Source of the DNA: a virus
Lineage: Duplodnaviria; Caudoviricetes
Direction: 5' to 3' (one strand)
Virus record (IMG/VR): IMGVR_UViG_3300005573_000089
Span: 4,420-68,419 of that record
Length of the DNA stretch: 64,000 bases
Position numbers and translations under genes: made by a program. The notes beneath the pieces are model-generated. The model was not told the DNA's origin. It did no database searches and saw only the letters and a list, made by a program, of their open reading frames with translations. Positions 10,115 to 49,624 of the stretch are shown piece by piece; the stretch's first letter is position 1; each line of letters begins with the position of its first letter.

Positions 10115-12823
10115 TTGGAATCATATGAATCGTATGATTCTTTATTACCAGATATAGAATTAGAAACAGAGAATATTCCTTATAAACTTCCAATTAAACC
10201 TATTGAACTTAGTTTATGCAATACTGAGTACATTGTAGAGAATGATAGACCTGTTATTCTTTTGTTTACAAGAGATAAAGATCTAAATGATTACATCATA
10301 CCAGTCTATGGATTCAAACCATACTTCTATATTTCTAAGAATGATCTTAGTGTATATGAATCATTAGGATATCTTAAAGATCTTGAATATTCCTTTACAG
10401 ATTTTTATGGTTACAATTCTTCAGATAAATTAGTAAAGATCTGTACAAAGATTCCAAGCGAAGTAGAGATCTATAGAAATGTAACTAATCCAGCAACTAA
10501 GAGAAAGATCAAGACATGGGAAGCAGATATATTATTTCCTTTAAGATTTCTGATAGATAATAATATTAGAACTGGATTATATTATGTACCAATTCCTAAA
10601 AACGATTTAGGTGATAAATCGATCGATTATTCTAAGTACATTATTCCAAGAGATGTTCCTTCAATTTATAGAAAATTATACATTGATATTGAGACATATT
10701 CCTATAAAATTCCAGATACAAAAGAGTTTAATGATCCAATAATAGTCATAGGTACATTTGATTCATTTTCTAAGAGATTTGTAATCTTTACTACTAAAGG
10801 TACAGATGAAGATCTTTCTAATTACTTAACTAAAAAATCTGAAGTACAATTGATTATTTGTAAAAATGAGAAAATATTATTGTCTAAGTTCAAAGAATAT
10901 ATCAAGACAATTAATCCAGATCTGTTCTTATCTTTCTCTGACTTTGATTGGATCTATATATTCAATAGAATGAAGAAATTAAAAATCAGTATCAATGATA
11001 TTTCAAGAGTCAATGTATGTTCAGTTACTCCTCATAGAGTAAAGATCCATGGAATACAGTTCTTAGATCTACAGACACTTTACTATGAGAAATTCCTTAG
11101 AGGATCTAAATGGGAAACATTACATGAAATAGCACATAGAGAACTTAATATGGAAAAATTATACAGAGAAGAGTCTGTTTATGATAACTGGAATAATGAT
11201 CATGTTAGAGTATTAGCTAGGAATATTAGGGATGTAGAGATCATTTATAGATTAGATTCAGAGAAAGATCTAATAACTCATTTTGAATCAATTAGAAGAA
11301 CAGTAGGATGTAATCTATCAGATACTTTATACAAAACTAGAATTGCAGATATAGCTTATCTTAGAATGTGTCATAATAAAATAGCATTACCAACAAGAAC
11401 ATTTATGAAAAAAGTAGAATATGAAGGTGCAGTAGTATATCCAGTTGTACCAGGAATCTATAAAAATATTGCAGTATTTGATTGGAGTTCTATGTATCCT
11501 AATATTATAATTGCATTTAACATTTCATTTGAAACACAAACAATTAGAGACTTTGGTGATCTTACTTACAATATTGATGACAAATATTTCTTCTTTAAAG
11601 AACCAGAAGGAATGACACCTAAATTACTCAAAGAACTAATGCCTTTAAGAGATCCATTTAAAAAATTACTTAAAGATCCAAATATTACTTCTCAAGAGAA
11701 GAGTTACTATAAAGCAGTATCTGATGGAATAAAAAGTGTAATTAATTCAATATATGGTGTATTTGGCAATGCAGGTGATCAAGATACTATTAAATCATTT
11801 AGATTGTATAGTCCTAACATTGCATCTGCTATTACTTATATTGGTAGACAATTAGAATTAGAAGGTATAATTCCTATATGTCAAGAACTTGGATTAGAAG
11901 TAATATACTTTGACACTGATAGTGTTTTTGTTAAAATGAAATCATCTAATAAAGAAGATTGTATTGCCTTAGAGAAGATATTAAACAATAAGATTAAAGA
12001 TTTTATTCAGAAGAGATGGAATGTAGATCCTAAACCACTTAATATTTCATTTGATAAGATGTTTGATACATTGATTATGCTTTCTAAGAAAAGATATGCT
12101 GGTAAAGAGATAGATGGAAATATTGATGTAAAAGGATTAGAGATCGTAAGGAGAAATGCATCTGAAGTATCATCTGAAATACAAGAGAAATTCTCTAATG
12201 CAATATTTGATAATAAGTCTAGGGAAGAAATGATTCAAATGATCAGAGACTTTGTAAGATCGTTTAAAGATAGACCAATAGAACAAATAGGTATTCCACA
12301 GAACTTAACTAAAGATCTAGATAATTACAAAGTTCAATCATCTCATCTTAAAGCATTTAATTTTTCTAGAGATGTTATAGGATTACACTTAGTACAAGGA
12401 AAGAGATTTTGGACTATTTATGTAAAGGATATTCCAGATCATTTAAAGACAATTGCTCAAGAGAAAGGATACAAAGATCCTAAGATGATTGCATGGGATA
12501 GAGATAATCAATTACCAGATACTTTGTTAAATTACATTGATTATGATCTAATGTTAGAAAAGACTGTTAGAGATAAAGTAGATGACTTTATGAAACTTAC
12601 AAATATTGATTGGTACACTGACATTTTACAGATCAAAGATCCTGTACTAGAAAAATCATATCAAATGTGGTTAAAGAGATTAAAGAAACATAAAATTGAT
12701 TTGATATTGCCTCAAGATGTATTTGATAAACTTTATAAAAATAAATTTAGATGTGATCAATCTCTTTGTCCATGTAATAATTTTATTAAATCGAAACTAT
12801 GTAAATATAGTGAATTGAAATGA
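10115..12823 (+). CDS. polB: family B DNA polymerase with 3'-5' exonuclease
   Basis: YIDIET, FDW, FDWSSMYPNII, K..INSIYG, YFDTDS, KKRY, KGLE. Confidence 0.95.
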   Translation: MESYESYDSLLPDIELETENIPYKLPIKPIELSLCNTEYIVENDRPVILLFTRDKDLNDYIIPVYGFKPYFYISKNDLSVYESLGYLKDLEYSFTDFYGYNSSDKLVKICTKIPSEVEIYRNVTNPATKRKIKTWEADILFPLRFLIDNNIRTGLYYVPIPKNDLGDKSIDYSKYIIPRDVPSIYRKLYIDIETYSYKIPDTKEFNDPIIVIGTFDSFSKRFVIFTTKGTDEDLSNYLTKKSEVQLIICKNEKILLSKFKEYIKTINPDLFLSFSDFDWIYIFNRMKKLKISINDISRVNVCSVTPHRVKIHGIQFLDLQTLYYEKFLRGSKWETLHEIAHRELNMEKLYREESVYDNWNNDHVRVLARNIRDVEIIYRLDSEKDLITHFESIRRTVGCNLSDTLYKTRIADIAYLRMCHNKIALPTRTFMKKVEYEGAVVYPVVPGIYKNIAVFDWSSMYPNIIIAFNISFETQTIRDFGDLTYNIDDKYFFFKEPEGMTPKLLKELMPLRDPFKKLLKDPNITSQEKSYYKAVSDGIKSVINSIYGVFGNAGDQDTIKSFRLYSPNIASAITYIGRQLELEGIIPICQELGLEVIYFDTDSVFVKMKSSNKEDCIALEKILNNKIKDFIQKRWNVDPKPLNISFDKMFDTLIMLSKKRYAGKEIDGNIDVKGLEIVRRNASEVSSEIQEKFSNAIFDNKSREEMIQMIRDFVRSFKDRPIEQIGIPQNLTKDLDNYKVQSSHLKAFNFSRDVIGLHLVQGKRFWTIYVKDIPDHLKTIAQEKGYKDPKMIAWDRDNQLPDTLLNYIDYDLMLEKTVRDKVDDFMKLTNIDWYTDILQIKDPVLEKSYQMWLKRLKKHKIDLILPQDVFDKLYKNKFRCDQSLCPCNNFIKSKLCKYSELK
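10601..10623. repeat. 23-bp palindrome copy inside polB (core GGTGA)
   Basis: aacgattta ggtga taaatcgat, encodes NDLGDKSI. Confidence 0.9.
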
Positions 12824-13131
12824 AAGTTAGAAAGAAGAAGAGAATTATATATTCAGAATCAGAACATAGGAAGGAATGTTTAAGTAAATTAGCTAAAGTG
12901 ATCGATTCAGATAACTTAGAAGGATTTCTTGTCTATGTAAGTGATAAGAACAAAATAAGATTTGCATTGACTGATAATAGCCTAGTAAAAGACATATGTG
13001 GTGGTATTGATTGTATCTTTGAAATGATCAAATTTATCAAAGATCCAGAACATAGGGAATTTATCTATAATTATTTTAAAGATAGATTGCTTGAAGAGAA
13101 TAATGCAAAAGATAACAGTCTAGTAGTTTGA
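12820..13131 (+). CDS. hypothetical protein
   Basis: ATGA overlap with the polB stop. Confidence 0.65.
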   Translation: MKVRKKKRIIYSESEHRKECLSKLAKVIDSDNLEGFLVYVSDKNKIRFALTDNSLVKDICGGIDCIFEMIKFIKDPEHREFIYNYFKDRLLEENNAKDNSLVV

Positions 13132-13134
13132 AAG

Positions 13135-13191
13135 ATCGATTTAGGTGATAAACTGATTTATGCGATAGATCGATTTAGGTGATAAATAGAT
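13135..13191. repeat. palindrome doublet (13135-13157, 13169-13191)
   Basis: two GGTGA-core copies 34 bp apart at a convergent junction. Confidence 0.92.
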
Positions 13192-13205
13192 CTTTATTCA
13201 AAGTT

Positions 13206-13742
13206 CTATAGATGTGTTGCTATGATAACAGATACATCTCCAGTCCAATTGTCATAATAAATTATCTTATAATTGTTCTCTAGCAATTTATTTTTAAAAT
13301 CATTCTCAATCTTTCTTGTATGTGTCTCTACAACGTATGATTCTGGAATAGAGAATATTTCATTTGATAGATCTAAAAATACAATCTCACATCCTTCACA
13401 ATCAATCTTTACTATATCAGGTCTATATTCTTCTAAAAGATCAGATATTTGTTTACTGTTATCTACATACAGAAATATTGGAAACAGTTCTGGAATATAC
13501 TCTGCATTTTTCTTTAATTGATCAAATATACTTTTATTACCTTCTACTCCTATTACCTTACTAGCTCCTTTACAGAAAAAGAAATCTGCAGTAGATCCAT
13601 AATCAGCACCTATATCCAATACAACTTTATCTTTGTAATCTATCTTTCCATAAAATCTCTCATAATCTTCTGGATAAGAAAATACAATTCTCTTGATCAT
13701 ATGCCTTATTACACTCTTTATAAAATTAAATATTATGATCAT
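13206..13742 (-). CDS. FkbM-like class I SAM-dependent methyltransferase
   Basis: VLDIGADYG, VIGVE, VKIDCEGCE. Confidence 0.8.
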   Translation of the reverse strand: MIIIFNFIKSVIRHMIKRIVFSYPEDYERFYGKIDYKDKVVLDIGADYGSTADFFFCKGASKVIGVEGNKSIFDQLKKNAEYIPELFPIFLYVDNSKQISDLLEEYRPDIVKIDCEGCEIVFLDLSNEIFSIPESYVVETHTRKIENDFKNKLLENNYKIIYYDNWTGDVSVIIATHL

Positions 13743-13745
13743 ATT

Positions 13746-13883
13746 ATGAAAGAGAAAGTAGATAAATTTCCTAAAGGAGATGCTTGTCCTAATTGTGGAT
13801 CTAAGTTAACAATACATTTCAATTTACCTAATTATAAATCAGCATCATGTAGTAAATGTGGATGGTATGGATGGAGTGAATAG
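13746..13883 (+). CDS. small Zn-ribbon protein (45 aa)
   Basis: CPNCG...CSKCGW; true start is probably the ATG at 13746 within ORF-track 13518..13883. Confidence 0.6.
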   Translation: MKEKVDKFPKGDACPNCGSKLTIHFNLPNYKSASCSKCGWYGWSE

Positions 13884-13921
13884 ACACTAAAAATAAATTC
13901 AACATATTTGTTTAGTTTCTA

Positions 13922-14380
13922 ATGATATATATGAGTCTTGACATAAGTATTTATTTAGGAATTGCTTCACTATCTGTTTCATTTATTACATTACTTACAA
14001 CTCAATGGAGATATTCTTTAATAAACTCTAAAGAATTAGAAAAGAGATTATCAACTGTAGAATCTCATACAATGACACCAGAAGAAAGAAAGTGTCTTAA
14101 TGATATTAAAATTAAAACAGATCTTCTCTGGAGTATTATAGAAGACGAATTACCTAAGATTTTAAAAAGAGATGATACACCTTTATTTGATTTTTATTTA
14201 GATAAGTTAATGACTAAAAAAGATTTCAATAATAAAGAACTTAAAGAATTTCTTGATCTAACTGATAATGAAATCAAGACTGCTATTGAGTCAAAAGACA
14301 GAGTAAGATTTACTACTTTATCTTTATTAAAAGCTAGGATTATGTACTCATTAATAGAGAAAGGAGAAGTTTGTAAATGA
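13922..14380 (+). CDS. N-terminally membrane-anchored hypothetical protein
   Basis: hydrophobic ISIYLGIASLSVSFITLLTT followed by a charged helical region. Confidence 0.6.
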   Translation: MIYMSLDISIYLGIASLSVSFITLLTTQWRYSLINSKELEKRLSTVESHTMTPEERKCLNDIKIKTDLLWSIIEDELPKILKRDDTPLFDFYLDKLMTKKDFNNKELKEFLDLTDNEIKTAIESKDRVRFTTLSLLKARIMYSLIEKGEVCK

Positions 14381-15363
14381 CTGAAAAAGAGATCATTCAA
14401 GTTATTAAGGAATTTAGAAAGAAAAAGAATGTTCTAGGTGGATCATCAGTACTTCAACCTAAGATCAAGAATGGTAAGATAATAGAAGGATCTAAAGTTA
14501 TCAGAATATACGTTTCTAGAAAAGAAATGAAATGTATGTTATCTAGTAAGGACATTGTACCTTCTACTGTTAAGATTAATAATAGGGAATATGAAACAGA
14601 TATTGTTGAAATAGGTGATATTAGAGCATTAGAAGGTAATTATCCAGATCCAAAATTAAAGTATAGACCATTAGTACCTGGAATTTCTACAATGAATGCA
14701 AATAGTAATGGTGCTTGTTCTTTAGGATTCTTTGCTAGAGATCTGACAAGTGATCAGATAGTTCAATTATCCAATAATCACTGTTTTGGACTTGAAAACA
14801 AGGCACATTATGGAGATCCAGTTATACAACCATCTATTTTAGATGGTGGAAATAAAAACACAGATTATACTGGAAAATTTATTAGATCTGTAGAGCTTAA
14901 ATTTACTAGTTTTACATGTCCATATAGAAATTCACTTCATTCAATATATAGAAGTTTATTTGGTGTAGATACAAATAAAGTAGATGTATCTTGTGCTTCT
15001 ATTACAATACCAGAAGGATATTCATTAAAGACATTAAATGGAATAGAGATTACAGGATGTAAAGATCCAGATATAGTTGCTAGACCATGGTCATATGGGA
15101 GAAGTTCTGGATATTCTTATGATGGAATTTATACCGATCTAAATGGAGTAGTACAAGTTCAGTATTCTAGAGGATATTGTATGTTTGAAGATGTAATTAT
15201 AGGATTACAGAATGACACATTCAAATGTATACCAGGAGATTCTGGTAGTCCATTATTTGAAGATGATAAAATAGTAGGACTTAGATTTGCTGGATCAAAT
15301 GTTTCTTGGATAGCATGTAAATGGAAGAATATTGAAGAACTATTACAAGTATCATTCCCATAA
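14377..15363 (+). CDS. trypsin-like (S1/PA clan) serine protease, Nal1-like N-terminus
   Basis: LSNNHC (His), VDVS (Asp), PGDSGSP (Ser); N-terminal IRIYVSRK..IVP..TDIVEIG. Confidence 0.85.
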   Translation: MTEKEIIQVIKEFRKKKNVLGGSSVLQPKIKNGKIIEGSKVIRIYVSRKEMKCMLSSKDIVPSTVKINNREYETDIVEIGDIRALEGNYPDPKLKYRPLVPGISTMNANSNGACSLGFFARDLTSDQIVQLSNNHCFGLENKAHYGDPVIQPSILDGGNKNTDYTGKFIRSVELKFTSFTCPYRNSLHSIYRSLFGVDTNKVDVSCASITIPEGYSLKTLNGIEITGCKDPDIVARPWSYGRSSGYSYDGIYTDLNGVVQVQYSRGYCMFEDVIIGLQNDTFKCIPGDSGSPLFEDDKIVGLRFAGSNVSWIACKWKNIEELLQVSFP

Positions 15364-15379
15364 TTGATTAATGCGATAG

Positions 15380-15402
15380 ATCGATTTATCCCCTAAATCG
15401 AT
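15380..15402. repeat. 23-bp palindrome copy (core TCCCC) preceded by TAATGCGATAG
   Basis: 16 nt after the protease stop. Confidence 0.95.
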
Positions 15403-15469
15403 TTTCTTAACATTTATTTTCTAGGAAATGTTTTTAAGGATAAAGTATGATTAAAGGTGTTGAATTAAT

Positions 15470-15679
15470 ATGAGTGAAGATGAAACAATTGTAGAAGAGG
15501 AATATAATCCATTAACTAGAGCTTTATCAACAACAGAAGGTGCATTAATTGCTTTATTGTCTTTTTGGATGATCTTAGCAGTTCTAATATTCTTTGGTAG
15601 AATATCAGAAGAGACATTTGTACAGTTATTCCTAACATCTGGTATTGTATATCCTTTATTAAGGCGAATAACAGAATAA
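15470..15679 (+). CDS. small two-TM membrane protein (holin-like size and topology)
   Basis: two hydrophobic helices, 69 aa. Confidence 0.55.
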   Translation: MSEDETIVEEEYNPLTRALSTTEGALIALLSFWMILAVLIFFGRISEETFVQLFLTSGIVYPLLRRITE

Positions 15680-15693
15680 ATAATTGATCTGTT

Positions 15694-16986: not shown

Positions 16987-16990
16987 TCTG

Positions 16991-18170: not shown

Positions 18171-18180
18171 CAATTCACAG

Positions 18181-23657: not shown

Positions 23658-24575
23658 TTGGTTGATTTAAAAATAATAAATGTACAAACAAACTCTCTTT
23701 GTAATGCTAACTGTGTATTTTGTCCTTACGTAGAATCATGGCATAAGAACAATCCAGGCAGTATGAAAGAGAGTTTGTATAGGAAGATATTAGATGATCT
23801 GGAAGAATATCCTAACTTTGAGGTATTCTGTCCTTATTTCCAGAATGATCCGTTATTAGATAAACGAATATTTGATTTGATAGAAATGTTCTATGATAAG
23901 TATCCAGATAAAAAATTAGAACTATCTGTAAATCCATTTAATATTCATAAGACTAACAGAGATAAACTATTCAAAGTTCTTAATGACAGAGATTATACAT
24001 TGATCATTTCCTTTAATGGTAGAAATGAAGTATCATTTGAATATACAATGAAAATTCCTTATTATCATTGCTTGGATCAAGTACTTAAGTTAGTAGAAGA
24101 ACATCCTTCTCCTAAAATTATTATCAGAGGACTTGGAGAATCTATTAATAATGAATACATTCTCTTTGACAATAGATCTTACTTTGGATATTGGTGGGAT
24201 ATTCTAGAAGATCAAGATCTTCTTAAAGAAGTTAAATTTGCTGTAGGTAAATTTGATGATAGAGCAGGACAATTAACAAGGGAAGATAGAATTGCTAATA
24301 AGATCAATTTCAACTATAAGAGAATAATTAACTCAAAGAATCCATTGAAATGTAAGAATATTGATAATAGATTATGTATTAGATGGAATGGAGATATTGC
24401 TATATGTCCAGTAGACTTTAAGAAAGAAATTACATTAGGTAATATTTCTGAAATGAGTATAACAGAATATTTCAATAGTGAACCTTATAATCTTTTAGTT
24501 AAGGTCTCTAAAGGAGAAGTACAAGCACCAGAGAACTTTATCTGTACAAGATGTTCTAATCCAGGTGCTGAATAA
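23658..24575 (+). CDS. radical SAM protein with C-terminal SPASM/Twitch domain
   Basis: CNANCVFC; C...WNGDIAIC...LGNI...CTRC. Confidence 0.88.
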   Translation: MVDLKIINVQTNSLCNANCVFCPYVESWHKNNPGSMKESLYRKILDDLEEYPNFEVFCPYFQNDPLLDKRIFDLIEMFYDKYPDKKLELSVNPFNIHKTNRDKLFKVLNDRDYTLIISFNGRNEVSFEYTMKIPYYHCLDQVLKLVEEHPSPKIIIRGLGESINNEYILFDNRSYFGYWWDILEDQDLLKEVKFAVGKFDDRAGQLTREDRIANKINFNYKRIINSKNPLKCKNIDNRLCIRWNGDIAICPVDFKKEITLGNISEMSITEYFNSEPYNLLVKVSKGEVQAPENFICTRCSNPGAE

Positions 24576-24913
24576 TGTCAGATTTAGAGATAGAAGAAAG
24601 ATCATTTATTAGATCTGTTAGAAGAAGTAAATTAGAAGTGTACTTAGATGCTCTAAGGATCATTGCTAATGGAGAAGGATTAAAGACTAGAATAATGTAC
24701 AAGACTGGTGTTTGTTATCCAGTTTTAAATAATGTTATGACATATCTATTAGACAATGGTTTCATCACTAAAGTACTTATACTTAAAAGAGGTAAATCAA
24801 AAAAGAGAGAGAAGTATTTCTATAAAGTTACTGATAAGGGTATGGAACTCATACAATTATATTATAAGCTATGTCAATTATTGTTCAGAGAAGAAAAAAA
24901 AAAGAGTGAGTGA
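24575..24913 (+). CDS. archaeal winged-HTH transcription regulator
   Basis: RRSKLEVYLD..KTRIMYK..L...YKVTDKG. Confidence 0.8.
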   Translation: MSDLEIEERSFIRSVRRSKLEVYLDALRIIANGEGLKTRIMYKTGVCYPVLNNVMTYLLDNGFITKVLILKRGKSKKREKYFYKVTDKGMELIQLYYKLCQLLFREEKKKSE

Positions 24914-35347: not shown

Positions 35348-37873
35348 ATGATTAAAATGGATCAGACTACTTTTGATTCAAGTGAAATAATATGTATAGA
35401 AACTAGTAAATTTAATCTATTATTTCCAGATGGATTTCCTATGAGTATTTTAGAAGATCTATGTTCACATTCAGATGAGGATGTTATAGGATTTGTTAAG
35501 GAGATATCAGATGAATCATTAGAGATCTTACATACTTTATCTCATGCTTATTTCAAAGAATTAGGAGATATTGCTTGTAGATCTCATTTCTATGTAGCTA
35601 ATGAAATGTTAGATAGAGGACTTAAACATATTAACAGAACTATTTGTGATCAAGTTGTAGAATTAATTAGAAACTATAAAACATATGATCCATCTAAAGT
35701 TCCTGATAAGGTCTTATTGGATGACAACAGAATTGTACATGCTTGGATCTCTAGATTAGAGAAAGGACTTAGATTTAACTCAGATCAATTTAAAGATCTA
35801 TCTCTAGAAGAACAAAAGAAAGTTATTTACAAATTAAAAGAAGAAATAGAAAAAGAAATGATCAAAAGAGGATTCAAAATATCAGAGAAAGATTCAGATA
35901 AAGACAAAATCGATTTATCCCCTAAATCGATCTTTGAAGAGATCAATCCATCTGAAATTGATCCTTCATATGTTATTGATCTTAGTGATGATGAATTAAT
36001 AGCCTTATATAGAAAAATACATGATATGGCTAAAGAACATATTTCTGAAGATTTAATGAATGCTAATATCTTTATAGGTATTGAATTATTCAAAAGAGGA
36101 CTTTATGATGATTATAAAATAGATGACAAATTAACTGAAATTACAGAAGTTAACATATCTGAATATCCTACGATCAAAGGATTCTCTAAAGATACAATTA
36201 CATTAGAAGATGTAATAGAAGCATTTCAAGAAACACCTAATATCCCTGTAGAAGGACAACCATATTCTTGTTATTTAGCTGGTAGGATAGTAAATGAAGG
36301 ATCTATTCCTTCTGATCATGATATAGATCTAATATTTAGACAAAGACCAGATCCAAGATTAATTGCAAGCATTAAAAGAATATTACCTAATTGGTTATCT
36401 GAAAGATTACATATAGTATTTGATCCTAATGGACCTGAAGTAGGATATTCTATTCCCCTATACAATTATGGATTCTTCTTAGTACCAGAAAATGAAATGA
36501 AGAAAGGATTTGGTCCATTTAGATATGAATCATTATCAAAACTTAAACCTGGAATGATCTTTAGATTACTTAAACAAAAGACTGGATGGAATAAGAATGA
36601 ATTTTGGCAATATGAAGATCTTTGGAATAATTGGGCTTCTAAGTATATTCAAAATAAAATTCACTGTAGTAAGAAATATGATGGTAGAAGTTTTTTGATC
36701 TGGATACTAAAGAATGGAGATGTTAAAATCATTACAGAAGATGAAATGAGAGATAGATCAGATCAATTACCTAATGTAATAGAAGAATTCTCAAAGATCT
36801 TCAAAGATCATGATGTATCCATTCATGCAGAATGTGTTGCATACAGTACAGAAGGTAAGATCATTAAATCAGCAGATGTTAAAGAGAATTCTTGTGAAGA
36901 AATACCTAGAGAAGATACAGCATTCCTTACAATTGGAAAGATAACAGAAGAACAAGAAAATAGTTTAGTCTTTCATGCACATGATCTTATTTACTATGAT
37001 GAAGATCTATCTGAAAAACCATATTGTGAAAGATTTGAGATCTTAGAGAACATTGTACCAGATAATTGTAGATTCATTAATGTTGTTAAGTTTGAAATAG
37101 CTAAGAATCCAAGAGAATTTAAAGAAGCAGTAGATAAGTTAAGATCTCTTAAAGGAAGTGAAGGAGTATTTTTTAGATCTTGTAATGCTACTTATCCTAT
37201 TAAGACATCTGGAGAGAATAGATCACCATTATTAGCAAAGATCAAGAACCTTAAGAGTGTAGATGTTATGGTATGGGATCGTATAGCAAAAGAAGAGAAA
37301 GAGACTCATAAGAGATTACCAGAATATATGTACGATTGTGTTTTCTTAATTCCTAAAGAACTTAAAGATAAATTTGATAAAGTCTTTGAATATAATGGGA
37401 ATTATTATTCTTACATTGGAAGGACATATGCTACTTCTGATAAAAGAGAAAGAGGAGATATTATAGAAGTACTTGTAGGTAGAATTAGAGAATACATTAA
37501 CAAAAGAACTGGTAAGACATACATATCTTGGATGTTCCCTAAGTACAAAGAATTTAGATCTGATAAGAAAGAACCAGATAATCTTAACACTATTAGAAAA
37601 TTAAGTAAAGTTGGACCAGGAATATTAAATTTAGATAATAAGATCGTTAAATTGAAACTATGTCCTTACTTTGAAGATTTTGATATTTGTCTTTTAAAGA
37701 GGATATTTGGTAGAACTAGAGATGAAGAACTTACTAAATTTGAATATCTTAAGTTTCCAATAATATGTCCTATAGCATCTTTCTACAGATGTAGATATCT
37801 TAAGTCTTATTATTATGGAATTAAAGATTTTGATATCGGAGATATAATTGTAGAGGAGGATGATGATCAGTGA
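35348..37873 (+). CDS. multidomain protein: His-rich helical repeats, Pol-beta-type nucleotidyltransferase, ATP-dependent ligase
   Basis: LAGR..EG..SDHDIDL; KKYDG, HAE, FHAHD, EG.F.R, AKIK, OB-like tail. Confidence 0.75.
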   Translation: MIKMDQTTFDSSEIICIETSKFNLLFPDGFPMSILEDLCSHSDEDVIGFVKEISDESLEILHTLSHAYFKELGDIACRSHFYVANEMLDRGLKHINRTICDQVVELIRNYKTYDPSKVPDKVLLDDNRIVHAWISRLEKGLRFNSDQFKDLSLEEQKKVIYKLKEEIEKEMIKRGFKISEKDSDKDKIDLSPKSIFEEINPSEIDPSYVIDLSDDELIALYRKIHDMAKEHISEDLMNANIFIGIELFKRGLYDDYKIDDKLTEITEVNISEYPTIKGFSKDTITLEDVIEAFQETPNIPVEGQPYSCYLAGRIVNEGSIPSDHDIDLIFRQRPDPRLIASIKRILPNWLSERLHIVFDPNGPEVGYSIPLYNYGFFLVPENEMKKGFGPFRYESLSKLKPGMIFRLLKQKTGWNKNEFWQYEDLWNNWASKYIQNKIHCSKKYDGRSFLIWILKNGDVKIITEDEMRDRSDQLPNVIEEFSKIFKDHDVSIHAECVAYSTEGKIIKSADVKENSCEEIPREDTAFLTIGKITEEQENSLVFHAHDLIYYDEDLSEKPYCERFEILENIVPDNCRFINVVKFEIAKNPREFKEAVDKLRSLKGSEGVFFRSCNATYPIKTSGENRSPLLAKIKNLKSVDVMVWDRIAKEEKETHKRLPEYMYDCVFLIPKELKDKFDKVFEYNGNYYSYIGRTYATSDKRERGDIIEVLVGRIREYINKRTGKTYISWMFPKYKEFRSDKKEPDNLNTIRKLSKVGPGILNLDNKIVKLKLCPYFEDFDICLLKRIFGRTRDEELTKFEYLKFPIICPIASFYRCRYLKSYYYGIKDFDIGDIIVEEDDDQ
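35909..35931. repeat. 23-bp palindrome copy inside the ligase gene (core TCCCC)
   Basis: perfect arms, encodes IDLSPKSI. Confidence 0.95.
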
Positions 37874-39744
37874 GTATATATGAAGATGATCTAGACTTAA
37901 ATAAAATCGATTTATCACCTAAATTGATTGAGATCTTACAGTCTAGATATTTAGAATATCCTAAAGACAATAAAGAGACAGAAGGAGTAATAGAAAGACA
38001 TTGTATAGGTAATGCTTGTCATTTTGATATTAGGTTTTTAGTTGATGATCATTTAGTTGGTTTCTCTATTGTAGGTTTTAATAGAGAATCTGATCCAGAT
38101 GTTAAAGATCTTAAAGTAAATGAAAATCATAGATCAGAAACTAAAGCAGTACAACCAGTTACTTGGTTATTTAAGAATAGAAAGATAGGAGAAGAATTTG
38201 AATTTAAACCAGGTACTGTAGGTGCTGGTGTAGAGAAAGAAGGAACTATGAAAATATTAGATCGTTTTAAAGTAATATTTGGTACATTAAAACCATATTT
38301 TGTAGAGTATTTTATTAAAGGAGAAAAGAACTTTAAAGATTGGACTAGAATTACATTTACTTCTTTAAAAGCTAAGAGATTAGATCCTGAAACTAAAGAA
38401 CCTATAGGAGAATTTGAGAGAATATGGATCTTTAAGATACCTTCTGATCAAATGCCTTATGCAATATCTGATAGAGCTATGAAGAAGAACTATAAGCCTA
38501 AAGAAGGTATAATTCCTTTTCCAGAAGAATGGACTAAAGAACATTACAAAGAACAATATAAGAAATGGTTAGATTATATGTCTAATAAGAAAGAAGAACT
38601 TAGTGATATTCAATACTCATTTGTAGTAGTATCTTGGATGGGTGCTAGAGCTAAATCTGGTAGGAATATGCCTCAATTTAGATATTATCTTCTTTTAAAA
38701 GATCAATCTGATTCTGTAATGGCTTATTTAGTAGATGGTAATTTATTATATGAAAATACACTTACTATATTTGAATTTGATAGGGTATCTACTAAATGGT
38801 TAGATTATGAAGGATTAATAAGTCCAGATTCAGTATTCAATCCAAATAAAGAGATTCAAGCAAAGTATACAATTATTTCTAAAGGCAGAGTATCTTATAA
38901 TAAAGAGATTGAAAATGAAATTGAGATCATTAAACTTAATTTCAAATCTGGACTGATCAAAGGTAAGTGGATTATAAAACAAGATGAGAAAGGATCTGAT
39001 ATTAGAACTATTGAGAAACTAATGATAGAAGAAATTAAAGAAGAACTTAAGAGATCTGAATTTGTCTATCATGAACATACTATAGATGGTAAGACACATT
39101 GGGATATTAGATTTAAAAATGGTACAGAATATAATCTTACAGATAATTTACTTGATACAAACAGTACTAAGGCTTATAGAAAGATGTGCTATGATATAGA
39201 CAAATGGTGGATCACTTCTGGAGAAAGAGATCTTAAAGTTGGTAGTATAATAACTCATGTTAAGCATCTAGATCATGGTAATGTTACAATCTTTAATGAT
39301 ACAGATAATTTCTCTTCTTATGATTTTAAAGGAGATCTGTTAAAAGGATTATATGTTGCTATCAAAGAAGATGGATATTACTTATTTAAGAAATCAGAAT
39401 TACCTGGAGAAGAAAAATTAAGTGAAGGAGATCCAAATACTGGTGATTACTATGATCCTTTCAAAATAATTGATATTAAAGGTAGAGATACATTTAGGAT
39501 AGAACTTTATGATATTAAGAAATTTACTAGATGTGAATTACCTTCTAAAGCTAAAGAATATATCAAAGATATTCCAGATGGTGTATCTATAGGTATTTGT
39601 TTATTCCCTAGAGAAGGAACATTACATGGTGCTAGAGTATCATATGTTATCTTCAAGAGAGATAAATGGACAATTGAACAAGCAATTAAATGGATAAATG
39701 ATAATAAAATATACAATTTTCTTTCTACTATGATCAGAGAATAA
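37870..39744 (+). CDS. protein with two LigD 3'-phosphoesterase-like motifs
   Basis: VIERHCIGNACHFDIRF and FVYHEHTIDGKTHWDIRF resemble the LigD-PE H-x4-6-H-[YFW]-D-x-R motif. Confidence 0.6.
   Translation: MSIYEDDLDLNKIDLSPKLIEILQSRYLEYPKDNKETEGVIERHCIGNACHFDIRFLVDDHLVGFSIVGFNRESDPDVKDLKVNENHRSETKAVQPVTWLFKNRKIGEEFEFKPGTVGAGVEKEGTMKILDRFKVIFGTLKPYFVEYFIKGEKNFKDWTRITFTSLKAKRLDPETKEPIGEFERIWIFKIPSDQMPYAISDRAMKKNYKPKEGIIPFPEEWTKEHYKEQYKKWLDYMSNKKEELSDIQYSFVVVSWMGARAKSGRNMPQFRYYLLLKDQSDSVMAYLVDGNLLYENTLTIFEFDRVSTKWLDYEGLISPDSVFNPNKEIQAKYTIISKGRVSYNKEIENEIEIIKLNFKSGLIKGKWIIKQDEKGSDIRTIEKLMIEEIKEELKRSEFVYHEHTIDGKTHWDIRFKNGTEYNLTDNLLDTNSTKAYRKMCYDIDKWWITSGERDLKVGSIITHVKHLDHGNVTIFNDTDNFSSYDFKGDLLKGLYVAIKEDGYYLFKKSELPGEEKLSEGDPNTGDYYDPFKIIDIKGRDTFRIELYDIKKFTRCELPSKAKEYIKDIPDGVSIGICLFPREGTLHGARVSYVIFKRDKWTIEQAIKWINDNKIYNFLSTMIRE
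37906..37928. repeat. palindrome copy inside a CDS (core TCACC)
   Basis: atcgattta tcacc taaattgat, encodes IDLSPKLI. Confidence 0.9.
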
Positions 39745-42775: not shown

Positions 42776-45700
42776 GTGTCAGAAAGTACTGATGAACTCG
42801 GATTCGTTACATCTGACCAGATAGATGAATGGGGATTCTTCTGGGATAGTAATGTATCTGAATCTGGGTTAACCAGTACTGAAACAATTACATCTACTTC
42901 TTGTTATTCTATACAAAGACCATTTCAAAATAAAACATTTTATGCTAATGGTAGATATTGGATATTTTACTTTAGTTCAACTGGCAATTTTGCCTATAAC
43001 TCAAGTACAAATGGTTCTTCATGGGGTACTCCAGTTACTATTAGTACTGATGTTCCAAATGAATATGCAGCAGTTTACTTTGATGGTACTTATGTTCATT
43101 ATACATATTACAAAACATCATATGATGTTATTTATAGAAGAGGTACTCCAAATAGTGATGGAACAATCTCTTGGTCTGCATCAGAACAAACTGTATACAA
43201 TGGTACTTCTTCCTCATATTACACTGTAAAAACTATTTCAGTTGATATAAATGGTCATGCATGGATAGGATGTACTAAATTCACTGATGGTGTAGAAGAT
43301 GCTGGTGTTATATTTAGAAATGCTAATACAGATGGTACTTGGGCAAATGATACTGGATTCCCATATACCATAAGCAGTTCAGATCAAGATCATACAATTC
43401 TTTTAGTTCCTCTCTCTAATGGTTCTGTCTATGCTATTTCATGTAAAGAAGATTCATCTATTTATGGTCGATTATGGTTATATGGAACTGGATGGCAAAG
43501 TAATGAGACAGTTACTAGCTCTTACCCAGAATCACGTCTTTATGTTGATGCAACTGCTTCTGGAAATGACGTAATGTTTGTATATGAAAATAGTTCATCA
43601 CAAGTTAGATATGTTTATAGAACATATGGATCAGGTTGGGGAACTGATACTTTACTTTCATCTACTGGCTATGACGGTATTAAAGTAACAAACTCTTTAA
43701 TTGGGATTTATTGTATTATAAGTGATCAATCTAATAATAGATTTCTTTATAGTGTTTACTCTAATGGTTCTTGGAGTTCATTAACTAATCTTACTTCTGC
43801 TAGCATCTATAGCAATACAGAATTTACTGGTTCAATGTTTGAAAATTCACATATAATTGCAATTGCATGGAAAACATCTGACTCTAAAGTAGGATTCTAT
43901 TATCTGCAAACAGCTACTACAGTAAGTAAAGATCTGTATGGAGAATTTTATCTTAAGAATAAGATCTATAAGCTCAGTTCTGCATTACAAAGTATTAAAA
44001 ATAAGGTCTTTACATTGGGTAGTTATCTATACAACACAAGAAGTATTGTCTATAAAGCATCTGATCACCTATATAATTTGAAAAATAAAGTATACTCACT
44101 AGGATCATTACCATACAACGTAAGGAATAAAGTAGGTAATATTTCCAATTCAATCTATACTTTAAGAAACAATGTCTATAAACTTTCATCTTCTATCCAT
44201 ACTGTAAGAAACAATGTTCAGAATAGTATTCAAAGTCTCTATTCAATATTAAGTAGGGTATTCGTACTTAACATATTCCTGTATTCATTATTTAATAAAG
44301 TAAGTGTAGGTTCATCTTTCTTATTTACAATTTTAAATAAAGTCTATAATTCGATCTCATTCAGTTTCATTGTTAGAAATATTGTAAGTGCATTGCAATC
44401 GTCTATCTATTCAATTAGAAATTCGATTTATCTCTTAAATCGATTTTCTTACAATTTATTTATGAAAATTTATAATATTCAATCCCTGTCCTATTATGTT
44501 AGAAACTTAGTCTATAAACTTAATTCGTTTAGCTATTTGATCAAAAATATTGTACAAGCAACTGAATCACTTGTCTATTCGATTAAAAATATAATCTATG
44601 TTACAATCTCTTCAATACACTTTGTATTAACTGGATTATACAAGTCATTAGAATTCATTTATAATTCATTCCAGAAGACTGTTAAAGAAATACAGATCAT
44701 TTGGAACATTAGAGGACTTATTCTATATTTGATATTCGATGATTATGAATACAATCAAAGTGTTTATGATCAAATACATGGAATAGAATTTAGACCAGAA
44801 ACATATGTAATTGATAGTTGTGAAAGTACTAGTTCATGGTCTGGAACTAATGTATCTCTATCAACTGATAGAAAGGTAGGATCTTATTCTATCAAAGAAG
44901 AGATCATTTCACCTGTAAGTGGAAATGTTTATTCATTGATCAATACTAATACCAAAGAATTTATATGGGAAGAAAGAAGGAATCTGTCATTTTATCTAAA
45001 GTGCAATAGACAGTCTAGTGATTTCGATTATGCTAGAATATATTTGGTAGACAGTGCTGGATATTATAGATATTGGAATCTGAATTTCAATCAAGATGAA
45101 TGGACTTTATTTAGAAAGAAATTTACTTTAGATGAACGTTATTATTTGCAATTACCTTCAGATGAAGATGGTGCATCTTATACTATTATAAATGATTGTG
45201 AATCAGTAAATGATTGGAGTTCTAATTTACCAGGAATGGTACTTGAAGATATTTCAGTTCATGGTTCATATTCCATATACTCATATGGAAATATAACTAA
45301 AGACTCATCTTATTATATTAAATATGATCCAAGCTCTGCTATAGATCTCTCTAATGGAAGATATCTTTCTATAACATTCTGTACTTATGAAGATCAGAGT
45401 ACATTCAATTATCTTAGATTAAAAATTGTAGATACCTCTGGAAATTATGCTTATAAAGATCTTGAACCAGAACAATGGTTATTTAGGAATTACGTTATTG
45501 ATTTAGAAAATATGGACTATGAGTCTAGTCCACCTCCAGACTTAGATAGTATTGATTATATTGCAATAGAAGTTAGTTACAATACTAATCAATATGTTCA
45601 TCTATTTGTAGATTTCATTAGATTAGATGATATTTCATTCTTGGATTCTGTACATGTTGAGTTTAGATTCAAAACTAAAGATACTAATTCATTCTATTAT

Positions 45701-48700
45701 CTAATTGATGATGTAGAACTAACTTCAAGTCCAATATTATCTGATGAAGGAAGAGTAGGCAAATCTATAGAATCAAATGGATTAGATTATCTTTTAGAAC
45801 GGAATTCTACAGATCCAAAGCTGGATGGAAAAGAATCTACAATTACTTGCTGGTTTAAGGCATATAGTGATAAAACTTGTCAGAAGATTTATGGAAAATG
45901 GAGACCTAATCTAATGTACCTTCCAGGTCTTTCACTTGTTTGGGAAATGCATGACCAATTAGGATGGGAACGATATGAATCTTTGAACTATAGTCCTATA
46001 TCGAATAATAAATGGTATTTTGCTGTTCAAAGAATAATTCCAGAAAGTTCTTATAATCAGTTTGATGGTAAAGTAGATTATTTCTTGTATGATGAAAATG
46101 GATTAGTTTCTTCTGGTACATATTCTGGATTTGGAACACCTGTAGATTCGGATAATGATACTATTAGGATTCCTTGGATAAATTGGATGGGAATCAATAA
46201 CTCTTCTTTCTTAGGCAAAATAGATGAATTTAGAATTTACAACAGAGCATTAAGTGATCAGGAAATAGAAGATCTATGGAAATTTCCATATGCATATAGA
46301 ATTTTATCATCCACTTATAGGTCATTCCAAATAATTCATGATATTATAGATTCTGTCTTTACAATTAGAAATTTATTGTATAAAGTTACAGAACTTCCTT
46401 ACATGATAAGAAATACATTGAATAGAATAGTAGAAGGATCTTATTCTATCTTAAACAAATTACAGCTATCATTAATTTGGATCTATGGTATATTTGGTCA
46501 TATTTCTACTTCTATATCACTAGGGATCTATTACATTCTAAATAAGATCAGTAACTTGGTTGATTTACCATATAAGCTATTTAATAAAATAGAAGTGTCT
46601 TTAAATGGATTCTATAATATAATCGAGAAGATAATTGCTAAATTAGAATTAGGTAGAACATCTTTAAGCTTCGACGGAGTGGATGACTACGTTCAAGTGT
46701 CAAATTCACCGTCTCTCAAGAACTTCTCGGCTATGACGTTTTTAGTATGGATTAAACCTCCTGCTTTTAATGGCGTAAACAGATTTTTAGTTGATGTTGG
46801 TTACTGGGACTATCCCTACGGATATTTGAGTTATTTTTCAGATTTCTACAATGATTTGTATATATTCCTTAGAAATACTGAAGGGACAGCAGTAAGTGCT
46901 ACTCAGATAGCTTTTACACCTGACGTATGGATACAGGTTGGATGGGTATGGGATGGAACTACGGTATACTCAATAAAGAATGGGGTGTTACAGACGGGAG
47001 TCGCTTTTTCAGGATTGATTGACCCCACGGCAAACATTATTATGGGACTGAATTTTAATGGTCTCATCAACGAAGTTCGCATCTACAACCGTGCCCTCTC
47101 AGAAGATGAAATCAAAAAACTTTACTATGGTTATAGAATTAAAGATGGTTTAGTAGCTGAATATTTATTTGATGAACAATCTGGTAATACTGCTTATGAT
47201 ACTTCTGGAAACGGAAATAATGGTACAATTTATGGTGCTACATGGACTATAGAAGGATCTTATTTAATTAAAAATATTCTAGCTAAGATCACTGATTTAT
47301 CCTATAAGATGTTTGGTTATGTTCAATCTTCTATCTCAAGTCTTTATGGAGTATTACAGAATGTATTCCTTAACCTAGGATATGGCAATTATACTATTAG
47401 GAACTTAGTATCTGCAATTAAAGACATATCTTATAATATTTCAAATATTGTCAAATCATCTATCAGTAGTGTTCATAACATATTACAGAAGATATTTGCT
47501 AATGTAAATGGAAGTTACTTTATAAGAAATACCATGTATAAGATTACTGAAATACCATATGGATTGTTTAATATTGTTAAGTCTTCAATTAATACTGCTT
47601 ACACATTAATGCAAAGATTATTTGTTAATTTAGAGTATGGTACTTATTTAATTAGAAATCTTGTATCTAAGATTGCAGATGTATCGTATAATGTTATAAG
47701 AATTGTCCAATCATCTATTACAAGCATTTATTCTGTCTTATGGAATGTCCTAGTTAATCTAGCATATGGAAATTATCTGATAAAGAACATTACATCAAAG
47801 ATCTTAGATGTATCTTACAAATTATTTGAAACTGTTAAATCAACAGTAATAATGCTTTATAGTTCAATAGAAAAGATCTTTGCTAATGTTAATTGGAGTT
47901 ATATAATTTGGAATTCGATATCTAAGATAATAGATGTTTCTTACAATTTAATTAACAGATTATATGCTTTGATCTCAGGTCTTTACGGTATATTTGAGGA
48001 GAAGATCATTGACTCTACAATTGTTTATTCTATAGGCAGTATCATAAGTAAGATAATAGATCAGACCTATACGATCAGAAACATTATTGGTAATTCTATA
48101 ATTTCCTTGTATTATGTCCTCAATAAGGTATACAATATTTCTGTTCTAGGTGTATATTCAATAATTAACTTAGTTTACAGTGGTATATCTTTCATTTATT
48201 CAATTGCTGGTTTAATTGTTCAAAATATCTCTGTATTGTACAACTTAATTGAGAAGATTTTACCAAGTATATCTTTGGATTATTCTTTAAGAAATATAAT
48301 ATCCAAAATTACAGATCTACCTTACAGTGTCCTTAATCTTATAAAGAATGATATTGAAATAATCTTTAATGTTCTCAATAAAGTCTTCAATGTTACAGAA
48401 TTAAGCTATAATATTTCTAATATTGTAAAGAACTCTGTAGAAATAGTCTATGGATTGCTTAATAAGGTATTACAACTATCTGAATTATCTTATAGCATCA
48501 GGAACATCACTGATAAAGTAATTTCATTCATTTACATAATATACGAACAATTACCAATATACAAGATTATTAGCACATCTTACTCTATAGTAGAGATTAT
48601 TTCTGCAATAATGGATTCGATCTATTCAAATCTAAATAGAGTATATCTGTCAATTGTAAAGACTTACAATATCAATAATTTGATTTACCAGATAAATCGA

Positions 48701-49624
48701 TTTGGATATAGCATCTATAACTTAGTTGTAAAAGAAGTTCTATCTATTTACAATTTACTGAATAAAGTACTTAATTCAATTTCAGTATTATTCAATGTCA
48801 GAAACATTACTGGGATAATCATAGATTCTGCCTATGCAATTAGAAGTATAATTGGAAACATCATATCATTTCTTTACAACATATATGAAGGATTACCAGT
48901 CTATCAGATCATAAGCACTACTTATTCTATAGTTGAATGGATTTATGCAGTAATTGATTCAATCCATACAAATCTAAACAAAGCATATCAATCTATCATC
49001 AAAACTTACAATATTAGAGAATCGATTTACCTGGTAAATCGATTTAGTTATGGATTATTTAATTTAGTTGAAAAGGAATTAGAGTCTTTATTCAATCTTT
49101 TAATGAAAGTCATTAACTCAATTGTTAATGTATTTAACATCAGAAATGTAGTACAGACAATCATAGAACAGATTTACTCAATTAGGAACTTAGTTATTAG
49201 ATCAATTGATCAATCTTATTTCATAAAGGAGTTAGTCTATTTTGTGATAGAACTTAATCACAATGTTAGAAACATAATAACTTATGTCTTTACATTAATT
49301 AGTAGAATTCTGAACAAAATACATTTAGAACAATCATTCATGTACAGTTTGAGGAGTTTAATATTAATTGAAATAAAACTAATTTACACAGTTATATCTA
49401 ATATCGTTATCAATGTCTTAATCATTACAACTAATGTTAGAAAAAATGTATACAGTTTCATAAGTTTAGTCTATGATTATGTAACGGAATACTTTAAGTA
49501 TATTGATGTCTTTCTTGGCTTAGTTAATAAGAAGTTTATGTTTGAACTTACAACTAAAATACATTCATTACAATTGATTGTTAAGAAAATATATTTAACT
49601 CTTAAATCAGAAGAAGAACAATAG
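42776..49624 (+). CDS. giant tail fibre/adhesin (2282 aa): beta-propeller-like N-terminus, 14-aa repeats, carbohydrate-binding-like and two LamG domains
   Basis: IDEFRIYNRALS and INEVRIYNRALS; LSFDGVDDYV; Y-x-I-x-N-x-V repeats. Confidence 0.75.
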   Translation: MSESTDELGFVTSDQIDEWGFFWDSNVSESGLTSTETITSTSCYSIQRPFQNKTFYANGRYWIFYFSSTGNFAYNSSTNGSSWGTPVTISTDVPNEYAAVYFDGTYVHYTYYKTSYDVIYRRGTPNSDGTISWSASEQTVYNGTSSSYYTVKTISVDINGHAWIGCTKFTDGVEDAGVIFRNANTDGTWANDTGFPYTISSSDQDHTILLVPLSNGSVYAISCKEDSSIYGRLWLYGTGWQSNETVTSSYPESRLYVDATASGNDVMFVYENSSSQVRYVYRTYGSGWGTDTLLSSTGYDGIKVTNSLIGIYCIISDQSNNRFLYSVYSNGSWSSLTNLTSASIYSNTEFTGSMFENSHIIAIAWKTSDSKVGFYYLQTATTVSKDLYGEFYLKNKIYKLSSALQSIKNKVFTLGSYLYNTRSIVYKASDHLYNLKNKVYSLGSLPYNVRNKVGNISNSIYTLRNNVYKLSSSIHTVRNNVQNSIQSLYSILSRVFVLNIFLYSLFNKVSVGSSFLFTILNKVYNSISFSFIVRNIVSALQSSIYSIRNSIYLLNRFSYNLFMKIYNIQSLSYYVRNLVYKLNSFSYLIKNIVQATESLVYSIKNIIYVTISSIHFVLTGLYKSLEFIYNSFQKTVKEIQIIWNIRGLILYLIFDDYEYNQSVYDQIHGIEFRPETYVIDSCESTSSWSGTNVSLSTDRKVGSYSIKEEIISPVSGNVYSLINTNTKEFIWEERRNLSFYLKCNRQSSDFDYARIYLVDSAGYYRYWNLNFNQDEWTLFRKKFTLDERYYLQLPSDEDGASYTIINDCESVNDWSSNLPGMVLEDISVHGSYSIYSYGNITKDSSYYIKYDPSSAIDLSNGRYLSITFCTYEDQSTFNYLRLKIVDTSGNYAYKDLEPEQWLFRNYVIDLENMDYESSPPPDLDSIDYIAIEVSYNTNQYVHLFVDFIRLDDISFLDSVHVEFRFKTKDTNSFYYLIDDVELTSSPILSDEGRVGKSIESNGLDYLLERNSTDPKLDGKESTITCWFKAYSDKTCQKIYGKWRPNLMYLPGLSLVWEMHDQLGWERYESLNYSPISNNKWYFAVQRIIPESSYNQFDGKVDYFLYDENGLVSSGTYSGFGTPVDSDNDTIRIPWINWMGINNSSFLGKIDEFRIYNRALSDQEIEDLWKFPYAYRILSSTYRSFQIIHDIIDSVFTIRNLLYKVTELPYMIRNTLNRIVEGSYSILNKLQLSLIWIYGIFGHISTSISLGIYYILNKISNLVDLPYKLFNKIEVSLNGFYNIIEKIIAKLELGRTSLSFDGVDDYVQVSNSPSLKNFSAMTFLVWIKPPAFNGVNRFLVDVGYWDYPYGYLSYFSDFYNDLYIFLRNTEGTAVSATQIAFTPDVWIQVGWVWDGTTVYSIKNGVLQTGVAFSGLIDPTANIIMGLNFNGLINEVRIYNRALSEDEIKKLYYGYRIKDGLVAEYLFDEQSGNTAYDTSGNGNNGTIYGATWTIEGSYLIKNILAKITDLSYKMFGYVQSSISSLYGVLQNVFLNLGYGNYTIRNLVSAIKDISYNISNIVKSSISSVHNILQKIFANVNGSYFIRNTMYKITEIPYGLFNIVKSSINTAYTLMQRLFVNLEYGTYLIRNLVSKIADVSYNVIRIVQSSITSIYSVLWNVLVNLAYGNYLIKNITSKILDVSYKLFETVKSTVIMLYSSIEKIFANVNWSYIIWNSISKIIDVSYNLINRLYALISGLYGIFEEKIIDSTIVYSIGSIISKIIDQTYTIRNIIGNSIISLYYVLNKVYNISVLGVYSIINLVYSGISFIYSIAGLIVQNISVLYNLIEKILPSISLDYSLRNIISKITDLPYSVLNLIKNDIEIIFNVLNKVFNVTELSYNISNIVKNSVEIVYGLLNKVLQLSELSYSIRNITDKVISFIYIIYEQLPIYKIISTSYSIVEIISAIMDSIYSNLNRVYLSIVKTYNINNLIYQINRFGYSIYNLVVKEVLSIYNLLNKVLNSISVLFNVRNITGIIIDSAYAIRSIIGNIISFLYNIYEGLPVYQIISTTYSIVEWIYAVIDSIHTNLNKAYQSIIKTYNIRESIYLVNRFSYGLFNLVEKELESLFNLLMKVINSIVNVFNIRNVVQTIIEQIYSIRNLVIRSIDQSYFIKELVYFVIELNHNVRNIITYVFTLISRILNKIHLEQSFMYSLRSLILIEIKLIYTVISNIVINVLIITTNVRKNVYSFISLVYDYVTEYFKYIDVFLGLVNKKFMFELTTKIHSLQLIVKKIYLTLKSEEEQ
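44422..44444. repeat. palindrome copy inside the fibre gene (core TCTCT)
   Basis: ttcgattta tctct taaatcgat. Confidence 0.8.
48679..48701. repeat. degenerate palindrome copy inside the fibre gene (core CCAGA)
   Basis: tttgattta ccaga taaatcgat. Confidence 0.65.
49021..49043. repeat. palindrome copy inside the fibre gene (core CCTGG)
   Basis: perfect 9-bp arms, non-consensus core. Confidence 0.85.

Follow-up and report, generated by a model that had tools for sequence, protein, structure and literature searches.

The closest described counterpart of the element studied here is the 17-bp dyad repeat of the Cluster O mycobacteriophages, TGTTCGG-NNN-CCGAACA, which has invariant arms and a centre with a favoured yet flippable sequence. 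Corndog carries 34 copies, 14 of them between genes and 11 clearly within genes; other genomes lack the repeat, and the authors who described it suggested a dimeric binding protein (PMC4351075). In this study, we analyzed a palindrome family in a 64,000-nucleotide stretch of DNA (the window) that spans positions 4,420 to 68,419 of IMG/VR record IMGVR_UViG_3300005573_000089 and makes up most of this 68,419-bp viral contig. Like the Cluster O repeat, this family has tens of copies in a genome of ~70 kb, invariant arms, members in genes as well as in spacers, a centre whose orientation is unrelated to transcription, and a distribution limited to one lineage. It differs in having an unrelated sequence, in an unrelated virus whose host is probably archaeal; its site is longer (arms of 9 bp around a 5-bp core), its intergenic copies lie close behind stop codons and at convergent junctions, and some of its copies form tandem doublets. 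This kind of repeat is already published, and it is the even spacing and the codon-level selection that are quantified here.

Other dispersed sites invite comparison. KorB, a ParB-family CTPase clamp, loads at palindromic OB sites on RK2 and slides up to 1.5 kb (PMC11790492). The present family resembles the KorB-OB, ParB-parS, and Noc-NBS systems in that palindromes are dispersed over a replicon (~60 kb for RK2) and a ParB/Noc-like protein is encoded by the genome. The family differs from KorB-OB in that its sites are far more numerous than those of RK2, the ParB-like gene is present in relatives that lack the motif, and the sites are predicted only. The stoperators of cluster A mycobacteriophages (L5 repressor) comprise 20 to 30 sites, mostly in short intergenic spaces, at which bound protein blocks elongation; their consensus is lineage specific and coevolves with the repressor, and each site is 13 bp, asymmetric, monomer bound, and oriented with transcription (PMC6550527, PMC9283540). 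The numbers (20 to 30 sites across a phage genome), the mostly intergenic placement, and the lineage specificity are shared; the palindromic form and a core orientation of 15:10 relative to transcription are not. AspA of the Sulfolobus plasmid pNOB8 is a winged-helix dimer with a 23-bp palindrome as its binding site, and it spreads along the DNA and recruits a ParB-N protein (PMC5120986). Here, too, the replicon comes from a hot spring and has genes for both an HTH_45 winged-helix protein and a ParB-N protein, but pNOB8 has one site compared with 30 here, the likeness of the winged-helix protein to AspA has an E value of about 0.2, and no ParA was found in this genome. Finally, the DNA uptake sequences of Haemophilus and Neisseria accumulate in genes, in permitted frames and at poorly conserved positions (PMC2817400). 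Unlike the palindromes described here, those sequences are driven by uptake in competent bacteria, number in the thousands, and are nonviral.

The motif reads ATCGATTTA-N5-TAAATCGAT and was matched 27 times in the window at no more than 2 mismatches, compared with 0.02 matches expected from dinucleotide shuffles. These copies extend from 1715 to 63515, have no assigned strand, and are intergenic in 21 cases, mostly 0 to 37 nt after a stop codon and usually 50 to 115 nt ahead of the next start. The end of the window (63491-64000) is identical at 507 of 507 bases to the start (1-510) of a second assembly, ENA contig L079, and the two either close a 71,483-bp circle or reflect terminal redundancy. 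Because of this closure or redundancy, the genome is probably complete, despite a completeness estimate of 60%. The full circle carries 30 copies in 23 clusters. Each copy is a 23-bp palindrome (~27 bp with its flanks) with 9-bp arms that have the same sequence at all sites, and conservation ends 2 bp beyond each arm. Once all copies were oriented, the core positions T-C-N-C-C were found in 27 to 30 of the 30 copies. The orientation of the core bears no relation to transcription, and by our own count it falls into ~12 runs around the circle where 13 would be expected, so that no pattern is apparent. A copy is present at all three convergent junctions and at neither of the two divergent ones. 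There are five tandem doublets on the circle, with a period of 34 to 35 bp; the one at 13135..13191 (no strand) occupies a convergent junction, and the others in the window are at 21687-21744, 39746-39803, and 53415-53472. About one-fifth of all CpGs in the genome fall within the motif. Two further ideas about the motif were rejected: none of the isolated ATCGAT sites, considered as half-sites, is flanked by arm sequence, and the GGTGA loop, considered as a Shine-Dalgarno sequence for downstream genes, lies ~60 nt or more from their start codons.

On the 71.5-kb circle, neighbouring clusters (23 in all) are separated by 1.5 to 5.1 kb (mean, 3.1 kb). The coefficient of variation (CV) of the spacing was 0.33, compared with 0.96 for random points (P <= 5e-5), and the largest gap was 5.08 kb, compared with ~11.6 kb for random points (P <= 5e-5). 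A preliminary description of this DNA had stated that the motif appears inside a long gene wherever that gene would otherwise break the spacing, and this was borne out. If only the intergenic copies are considered, there are gaps of 5.2, 8.6, and 11.6 kb, as opposed to the 5.08-kb maximum with the intragenic copies included, and each intragenic copy lies in one of these three gaps. When the intergenic copies were held fixed and the five intragenic clusters were scattered randomly, the observed placement had a P value of 4e-5 for the CV and 3e-4 for the largest gap; the values were similar when the copy in the phosphoesterase-like (PE) gene was counted as intergenic. The remaining 3.06 kb of the circle, seen only afterwards, contained a further doublet, which follows a stop codon by 2 nt and lies near the place where the spacing rule called for one. 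This doublet is 5.08 kb from the next copy, slightly past the expected 4.8 kb.

The coordinates and peptides that the preliminary description gave for six intragenic copies were all correct, and each copy is in frame within an open reading frame (ORF) supported by homology. The two reading frames that it reported were also found, with an offset of 0 for the copies in the polymerase, ligase, and PE genes and an offset of 2 for the three copies in a long repeat protein. The claim that cores of both orientations occur holds for GGTGA in the polymerase gene as opposed to TCCCC and TCACC in the ligase and PE genes; the repeat-protein cores (TCTCT, CCAGA, and CCTGG) are noncanonical. The third frame of the motif always contains TAA, and frame 2 combined with a GGNGA core gives TAG, which leaves three of the six combinations of frame and orientation open. 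Every intragenic copy sits in one of these three and so keeps clear of the frames with a stop, which suggests that the copies are translated. Contigs from two DNA runs were identical in sequence, with no insertions or deletions at the intragenic copies.

The family B DNA polymerase gene polB (10115..12823, plus strand; Pfam DNA_pol_B and exonuclease domains, with homologues) contains a copy at 10601..10623 that has the core GGTGA and 1 mismatch and encodes NDLGDKSI. It is part of an 11-residue insertion that is missing from all 14 aligned homologues (27 to 49% identity) and that lies between conserved blocks, just upstream of the Exo I motif. In an AlphaFold model of the polymerase (mean predicted local distance difference test [pLDDT], 85), the loop that joins strands 154-157 and 176-179 holds the copy, and the pLDDT falls to 72 there. 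A bulge-helix-bulge mini-intron or translational bypass at this insertion was considered and rejected, since bulges are absent and no copy uses a frame with a stop. As a separate observation on polB, relative P0006 has an insertion of ~400 residues at the conserved K-S-x-I-N motif (alignment columns 670 to 1020), which is probably an intein.

The ligase-fusion gene (35348..37873, plus strand) encodes an 841-aa protein with an ATP-dependent DNA ligase domain. Its copy, at 35909..35931 (core TCCCC, 0 mismatches), encodes IDLSPKSI and falls in a linker of variable length between conserved blocks, with homologues aligning on both sides. The linker is 10 and 16 residues longer than in the nearest homologues, P0121 and P0122 (57 to 59% identity), and many of the ligase database matches start or stop at it (breaks at residues 181/196). 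The adjacent gene (37870..39744, plus strand) encodes a 624-aa LigD phosphoesterase-like protein that is fused to the ligase in relatives. It holds a copy at 37906..37928, in codons 13 to 20 (core TCACC, 1 mismatch), that encodes IDLSPKLI. Because homology with fused ligase-PE proteins runs across this copy, from residue 2-6 and without gaps relative to the nearest fused homologue, the copy is translated. It is also 33 nt beyond the ligase stop codon, and its earlier description as intragenic therefore needs qualification: the copy is both intragenic and post-stop. With regard to gene organization, ligase and PE are separate ORFs overlapping in GTGA (37870-37873) in all contigs of this virus, and they form a single fused polypeptide in relatives P0122, P0126, P0127, P0132, and P0138.

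The remaining three copies are in a gene (42776..49624, plus strand) for a 2282-aa protein built of 14-aa units (Y-x-I-R-N...S-Y) and containing two LamG-type lectin domains. They are located at 44422..44444 (core TCTCT, 1 mismatch, SIYLLNRF), 48679..48701 (CCAGA, 2 mismatches, LIYQINRF), and 49021..49043 (CCTGG, 0 mismatches, SIYLVNRF). Each takes the exact place of 8 codons in a 14-aa unit, with no insertion or deletion, and the period is kept. The copies at 48679 and 49021 belong to paralogous segments produced by one internal duplication, which share 62% nucleotide identity and match at 16 of the 18 arm positions. At the aligned place, a distant homologue of the repeat protein has the peptide RIYGLFRV, whose codons are not palindromic. 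The three copies lack a canonical core, which suggests, at the level of sequence, that the arms are what matters. The gene had been called a fibre gene; in view of the LamG domains and a weak match to a tape-measure PHROG, that role is only tentative. The next large gene (51403-53415) also matches the tape-measure family, and the tape-measure role could belong to either gene.

Some of the intragenic copies thus look as if they were pasted in (polB and ligase), and others as if they were rewritten in place (PE and the repeat protein). The possibility that the encoded peptides fall in regions tolerant of insertions and deletions, when examined in alignments of homologues, applies to the loop insertion in polB and the variable linker in the ligase but not to PE or the repeat protein, in which there is no change in length. 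As for conservation of the peptides in homologues, a Pro within the PE peptide is conserved, RIYGLFRV is related to the repeat-protein peptides, and the polB peptide is absent from the 14 homologues.

The number of mismatches in each of the six intragenic copies is the minimum that its peptide allows, and the probability of reaching it given the peptide ranged from 5e-5 to 2e-3 per copy (4.8e-5 for the copy at 49021). Synonymous codon resampling over all genes yielded 0.34 matches, as opposed to the 6 observed, so the copies are not at the chance level of a codon-shuffled null. CpG is scarce in this genome (309 observed compared with 1,466 expected; observed/expected ratio, 0.21), and CGA and TCG make up 1.8% of Arg codons and 1.7% of Ser codons, respectively. 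Despite this, the intragenic copies use the rare TCG and CGA codons; three of the five CGA codons in the repeat-protein gene are inside palindrome copies. Mismatch counts in that gene are bimodal, at 0, 1, and 2 and then none better than 4. These data leave very little room for the idea that the intragenic copies arose by chance or as by-products of the peptides they encode, such as the 14-aa repeat; the codon null refutes it. The repeat-protein copies do fit the 14-aa unit, and the aligned peptide of the homologue is related, but its codons do not form the palindrome. The earlier suggestion that the copies in this gene derive partly from its 14-aa repeat is therefore sustained insofar as the copies fit the unit without insertion or deletion and two of them stem from one duplication, and it is countered by the nonpalindromic codons of the homologue. 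The use of rare CpG codons, the minimal-mismatch codons in six of six copies, the 16 of 18 matching arm positions in paralogues that are 62% identical, and the evened spacing (P, ~4e-5) together support selection on the intragenic copies at the DNA level, and not via the encoded peptides, as had been proposed from the sequence alone.

A search of IMG/VR found no other contig that carries the palindrome family. In genome and metagenome collections, there were only single scattered matches with unrelated cores, and the sole match with a canonical core came from the same virus. The repeat is missing from syntenic relatives, whose polB proteins are 42 to 48% identical, and from another relative found in the same samples. 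At the level of sequence comparison, these searches show that the family is specific to this virus lineage. L078, a related virus from the same samples (2981-21920), is without the ATCGAT palindrome and has a different sequence, TAAGAT[CG]ATCTTA, 10 times at no more than 2 mismatches compared with 2.3 expected, mostly within genes. This excess may come from peptide or codon bias (EDDL and KIIL). It was rejected as an independent replicate of the lattice of sites, since the enrichment is modest (10 versus 2.3) and the spacing is uneven.

We consider it unlikely that the motif acts in RNA, as a hairpin that ends or stabilizes transcripts, possibly with a protein partner, with the intragenic copies being tolerated strays melted by ribosomes. 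The distances of the intergenic copies from stop and start codons (0 to 37 nt and 50 to 115 nt, respectively) and the junction counts (three of three convergent, none of two divergent) would suit such a role. However, the stem has only 2 G-C pairs in 9, and although positions +23 to +25 are T rich, there is no T run or consistent U-tract; none of the copies in positions 1-20000 was called terminator-like. The RNA hairpin has a predicted folding energy of -6.6 kcal/mol at 37°C, which shrinks to -1.1 at 70°C and 0 at 85°C, and the virus comes from a hot spring. It is the sequence of the arms that is fixed, and not just their pairing: by our own tally, the 12 variant positions give a mismatch or an occasional G-U pair and never a compensated pair. 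Three of the 12 variants are G-U compatible on the transcribed strand, compared with 17% expected, a tally (also our own) that is uninformative. Strays would neither even out the spacing nor keep rare CpG codons across old paralogues. Furthermore, oligo-T tracts in motif-free gaps could terminate transcription alone. Runs of 7 to 10 T's directly after the stop codon, with no hairpin, are present in the motif-free gaps 1395-1479, 18516-18584, 61012-61040, 61810-61830, and 62414-62440, and in sequence they look like archaeal-type termination signals. A self-folding terminator is therefore unlikely. The preference expressed in the preliminary description for a protein-loading or architectural role over a simple terminator is upheld to the extent that a self-acting hairpin fits poorly (2 G-C pairs, no U-tract, invariant arms), but a transcription-linked roadblock is still compatible with the data.

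A selfish mini-palindrome, copying itself into harmless places after stop codons and rarely into in-frame loops in the manner of repetitive extragenic palindromic (REP) sequences, transposable elements of the miniature inverted-repeat type (MITEs), or Rickettsia palindromic elements (RPEs), would account for a lineage-specific burst missing from relatives, for canonical cores common to the intergenic, polB, ligase, and PE copies, for the gains in length in polB (+11 aa) and the ligase (+10 to +16 aa), and for the tandem doublets. There is precedent in the RPEs, palindromic DNA inserted in frame into the coding genes of Rickettsia. In-frame palindromic insertions in protein-coding genes are known also for the MITEs of Coxiella (PMC5896051). 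The likeness lies in the tolerance of in-frame palindromic DNA in loops. RPEs and MITEs are at least 100 bp, mobile, and not evenly spaced, whereas the unit here is ~27 bp and half of the intragenic copies (PE and repeat protein) add no length. Nothing is conserved beyond ~27 bp, terminal repeats and target duplications are absent, and the Pfam matches include no transposase, REP-associated tyrosine transposase (RAYT), or integrase. Even spacing and the retention of CpGs in a CpG-purged genome would also be unexpected of such an element, and we regard this explanation as improbable. Even spacing and strand-symmetric arms would suit a process acting along the whole DNA, such as site-specific nicking, priming or the initiation of recombination, or the attack of cruciforms by the virus's own Mre11/SbcD-like, ERCC4, or RadA proteins; all three of these proteins are encoded by the genome, along with an end-healing pair of ligase and PE. 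We judge such DNA-transaction sites to be quite unlikely, as relatives have the same repair genes and not the motif, and the core orientation (~12 runs versus 13 expected) is without a replication-like polarity. The Mre11/SbcD-like nuclease of this 30-palindrome genome (17217-18170) matches a PHROG annotated as a palindrome-specific endonuclease subunit, and relatives without the palindrome share the gene.

We put at about even the chance that the palindromes serve, as double-stranded DNA, to dock or load a two-fold-symmetric (dimeric) DNA-binding protein that the virus encodes. From the predicted sites, we infer that a protein reads them, which protein this might be, and what it might do. A single symmetric protein would read the palindromes and act along the whole chromosome. 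It could serve as a roadblock, as a silencer, or as a clamp that slides or spreads in the manner of ParB/KorB or AspA. If it could reach only so far, selection would maintain a density of about one site every 3 kb, which a KorB-type slide of up to ~1.5 kb would fit. The cheapest place for most sites would be directly after a stop codon. In overlong genes, sites would have to be placed inside, either by a short in-frame insertion in a loop or linker, as in polB and the ligase, or by the rewriting of ~8 codons in a tolerant stretch, as in the PE N terminus and the 14-aa repeat units. A more specific version, which we advance only tentatively, is that the palindromes form a genome-wide lattice of loading sites for the own clamp or spreading protein (ParB/KorB- or AspA-like) of what is probably an archaeal tailed virus, with a reach of ~1.5 kb per side forcing a site into every stretch longer than ~5 kb, including the polymerase, the ligase, and the 6.8-kb structural gene. 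If true, this would be a viral system to mark, silence, or compact a whole chromosome at once.

Two genes in the window encode candidate readers. The first (6690..7604, plus strand) encodes a ParB/Noc-like protein with an N-terminal GxRR box and a helix-turn-helix (Pfam ParB_N and HTH_23). The protein matches the Noc structure 7ng0 in PDB (E value, 6e-9) and Spo0J, as well as a ParB-like PHROG, and its GLRRW aligns with GERRW. The ParB-like orthologues differ in their recognition helices. The second candidate is a winged-helix HTH_45 protein (24575..24913, plus strand; Pfam HTH_45, E value of 3.7e-15). A motif copy is located 169 nt downstream of this gene, and an inverted copy is 289 nt further on. 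The likeness of this protein to AspA/Sso10a is weak, with an E value of about 0.2; a word-based homologue search returned only the protein itself, and its single-sequence structure model was poor (pLDDT, 54). No ParA or KorA partner was recognized in this genome. Immediately beyond this gene is an uncalled ORF of ~50 codons (24945-25100) with a CxxH...CPKC pattern resembling a zinc ribbon, the TAA stop codon of which is supplied by the motif copy at 25083. Similar small Cys-rich ORFs are also found in the 433-bp gap at 4454-4886.

Several observations weigh against docking sites for a symmetric protein. The placement of copies directly after stop codons, together with their presence at three of three convergent and none of two divergent junctions, also fits a role at transcript ends, and the same observations keep open a transcription-linked role, such as that of a protein roadblock. 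A symmetric dimer leaves the conserved asymmetric core unexplained. The spacing test was designed after the pattern had been noticed and covers one genome only, and one interval of 5.08 kb contains no intragenic copy, which means that there is no hard spacing threshold. In addition, relative L008 is without the motif even though the recognition helix of its ParB-like orthologue is similar, and the ParB-like protein is weakened as a candidate reader for this reason.

The public runs that contain the same sequence are hot-spring metagenomes. The window encodes a large terminase, a capsid protein, a tail tube, and the very long repeat protein, and also replication and repair genes with an archaeal look: a RadA/Rad51-type recombinase, ERCC4, the Mre11/SbcD-like nuclease, and an anaerobic ribonucleotide reductase. 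The closest cellular relatives of the family B polymerase are in DPANN archaea. The virus is a tailed one, probably with an archaeal host. Other features of its composition are that GGCC, CCGG, GCGC, and CGCG do not occur in 68 kb and that GATC is overrepresented 1.6-fold genome-wide; no DNA methyltransferase was recognized among the encoded proteins of the genome.

The palindrome family points to a noncoding DNA signal that, in essential genes, takes precedence over codon preference and even over the length of the proteins. For a class of phage repeat that has stood unexplained, that of Cluster O, it provides a testable hypothesis, namely, a density requirement of ~1 site per 3 kb, and it names candidate readers encoded by the same genome. 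Were a ParB- or AspA-like protein to recognize the sites, clamp-and-slide control of a genome would extend from plasmids to viruses, probably archaeal ones.

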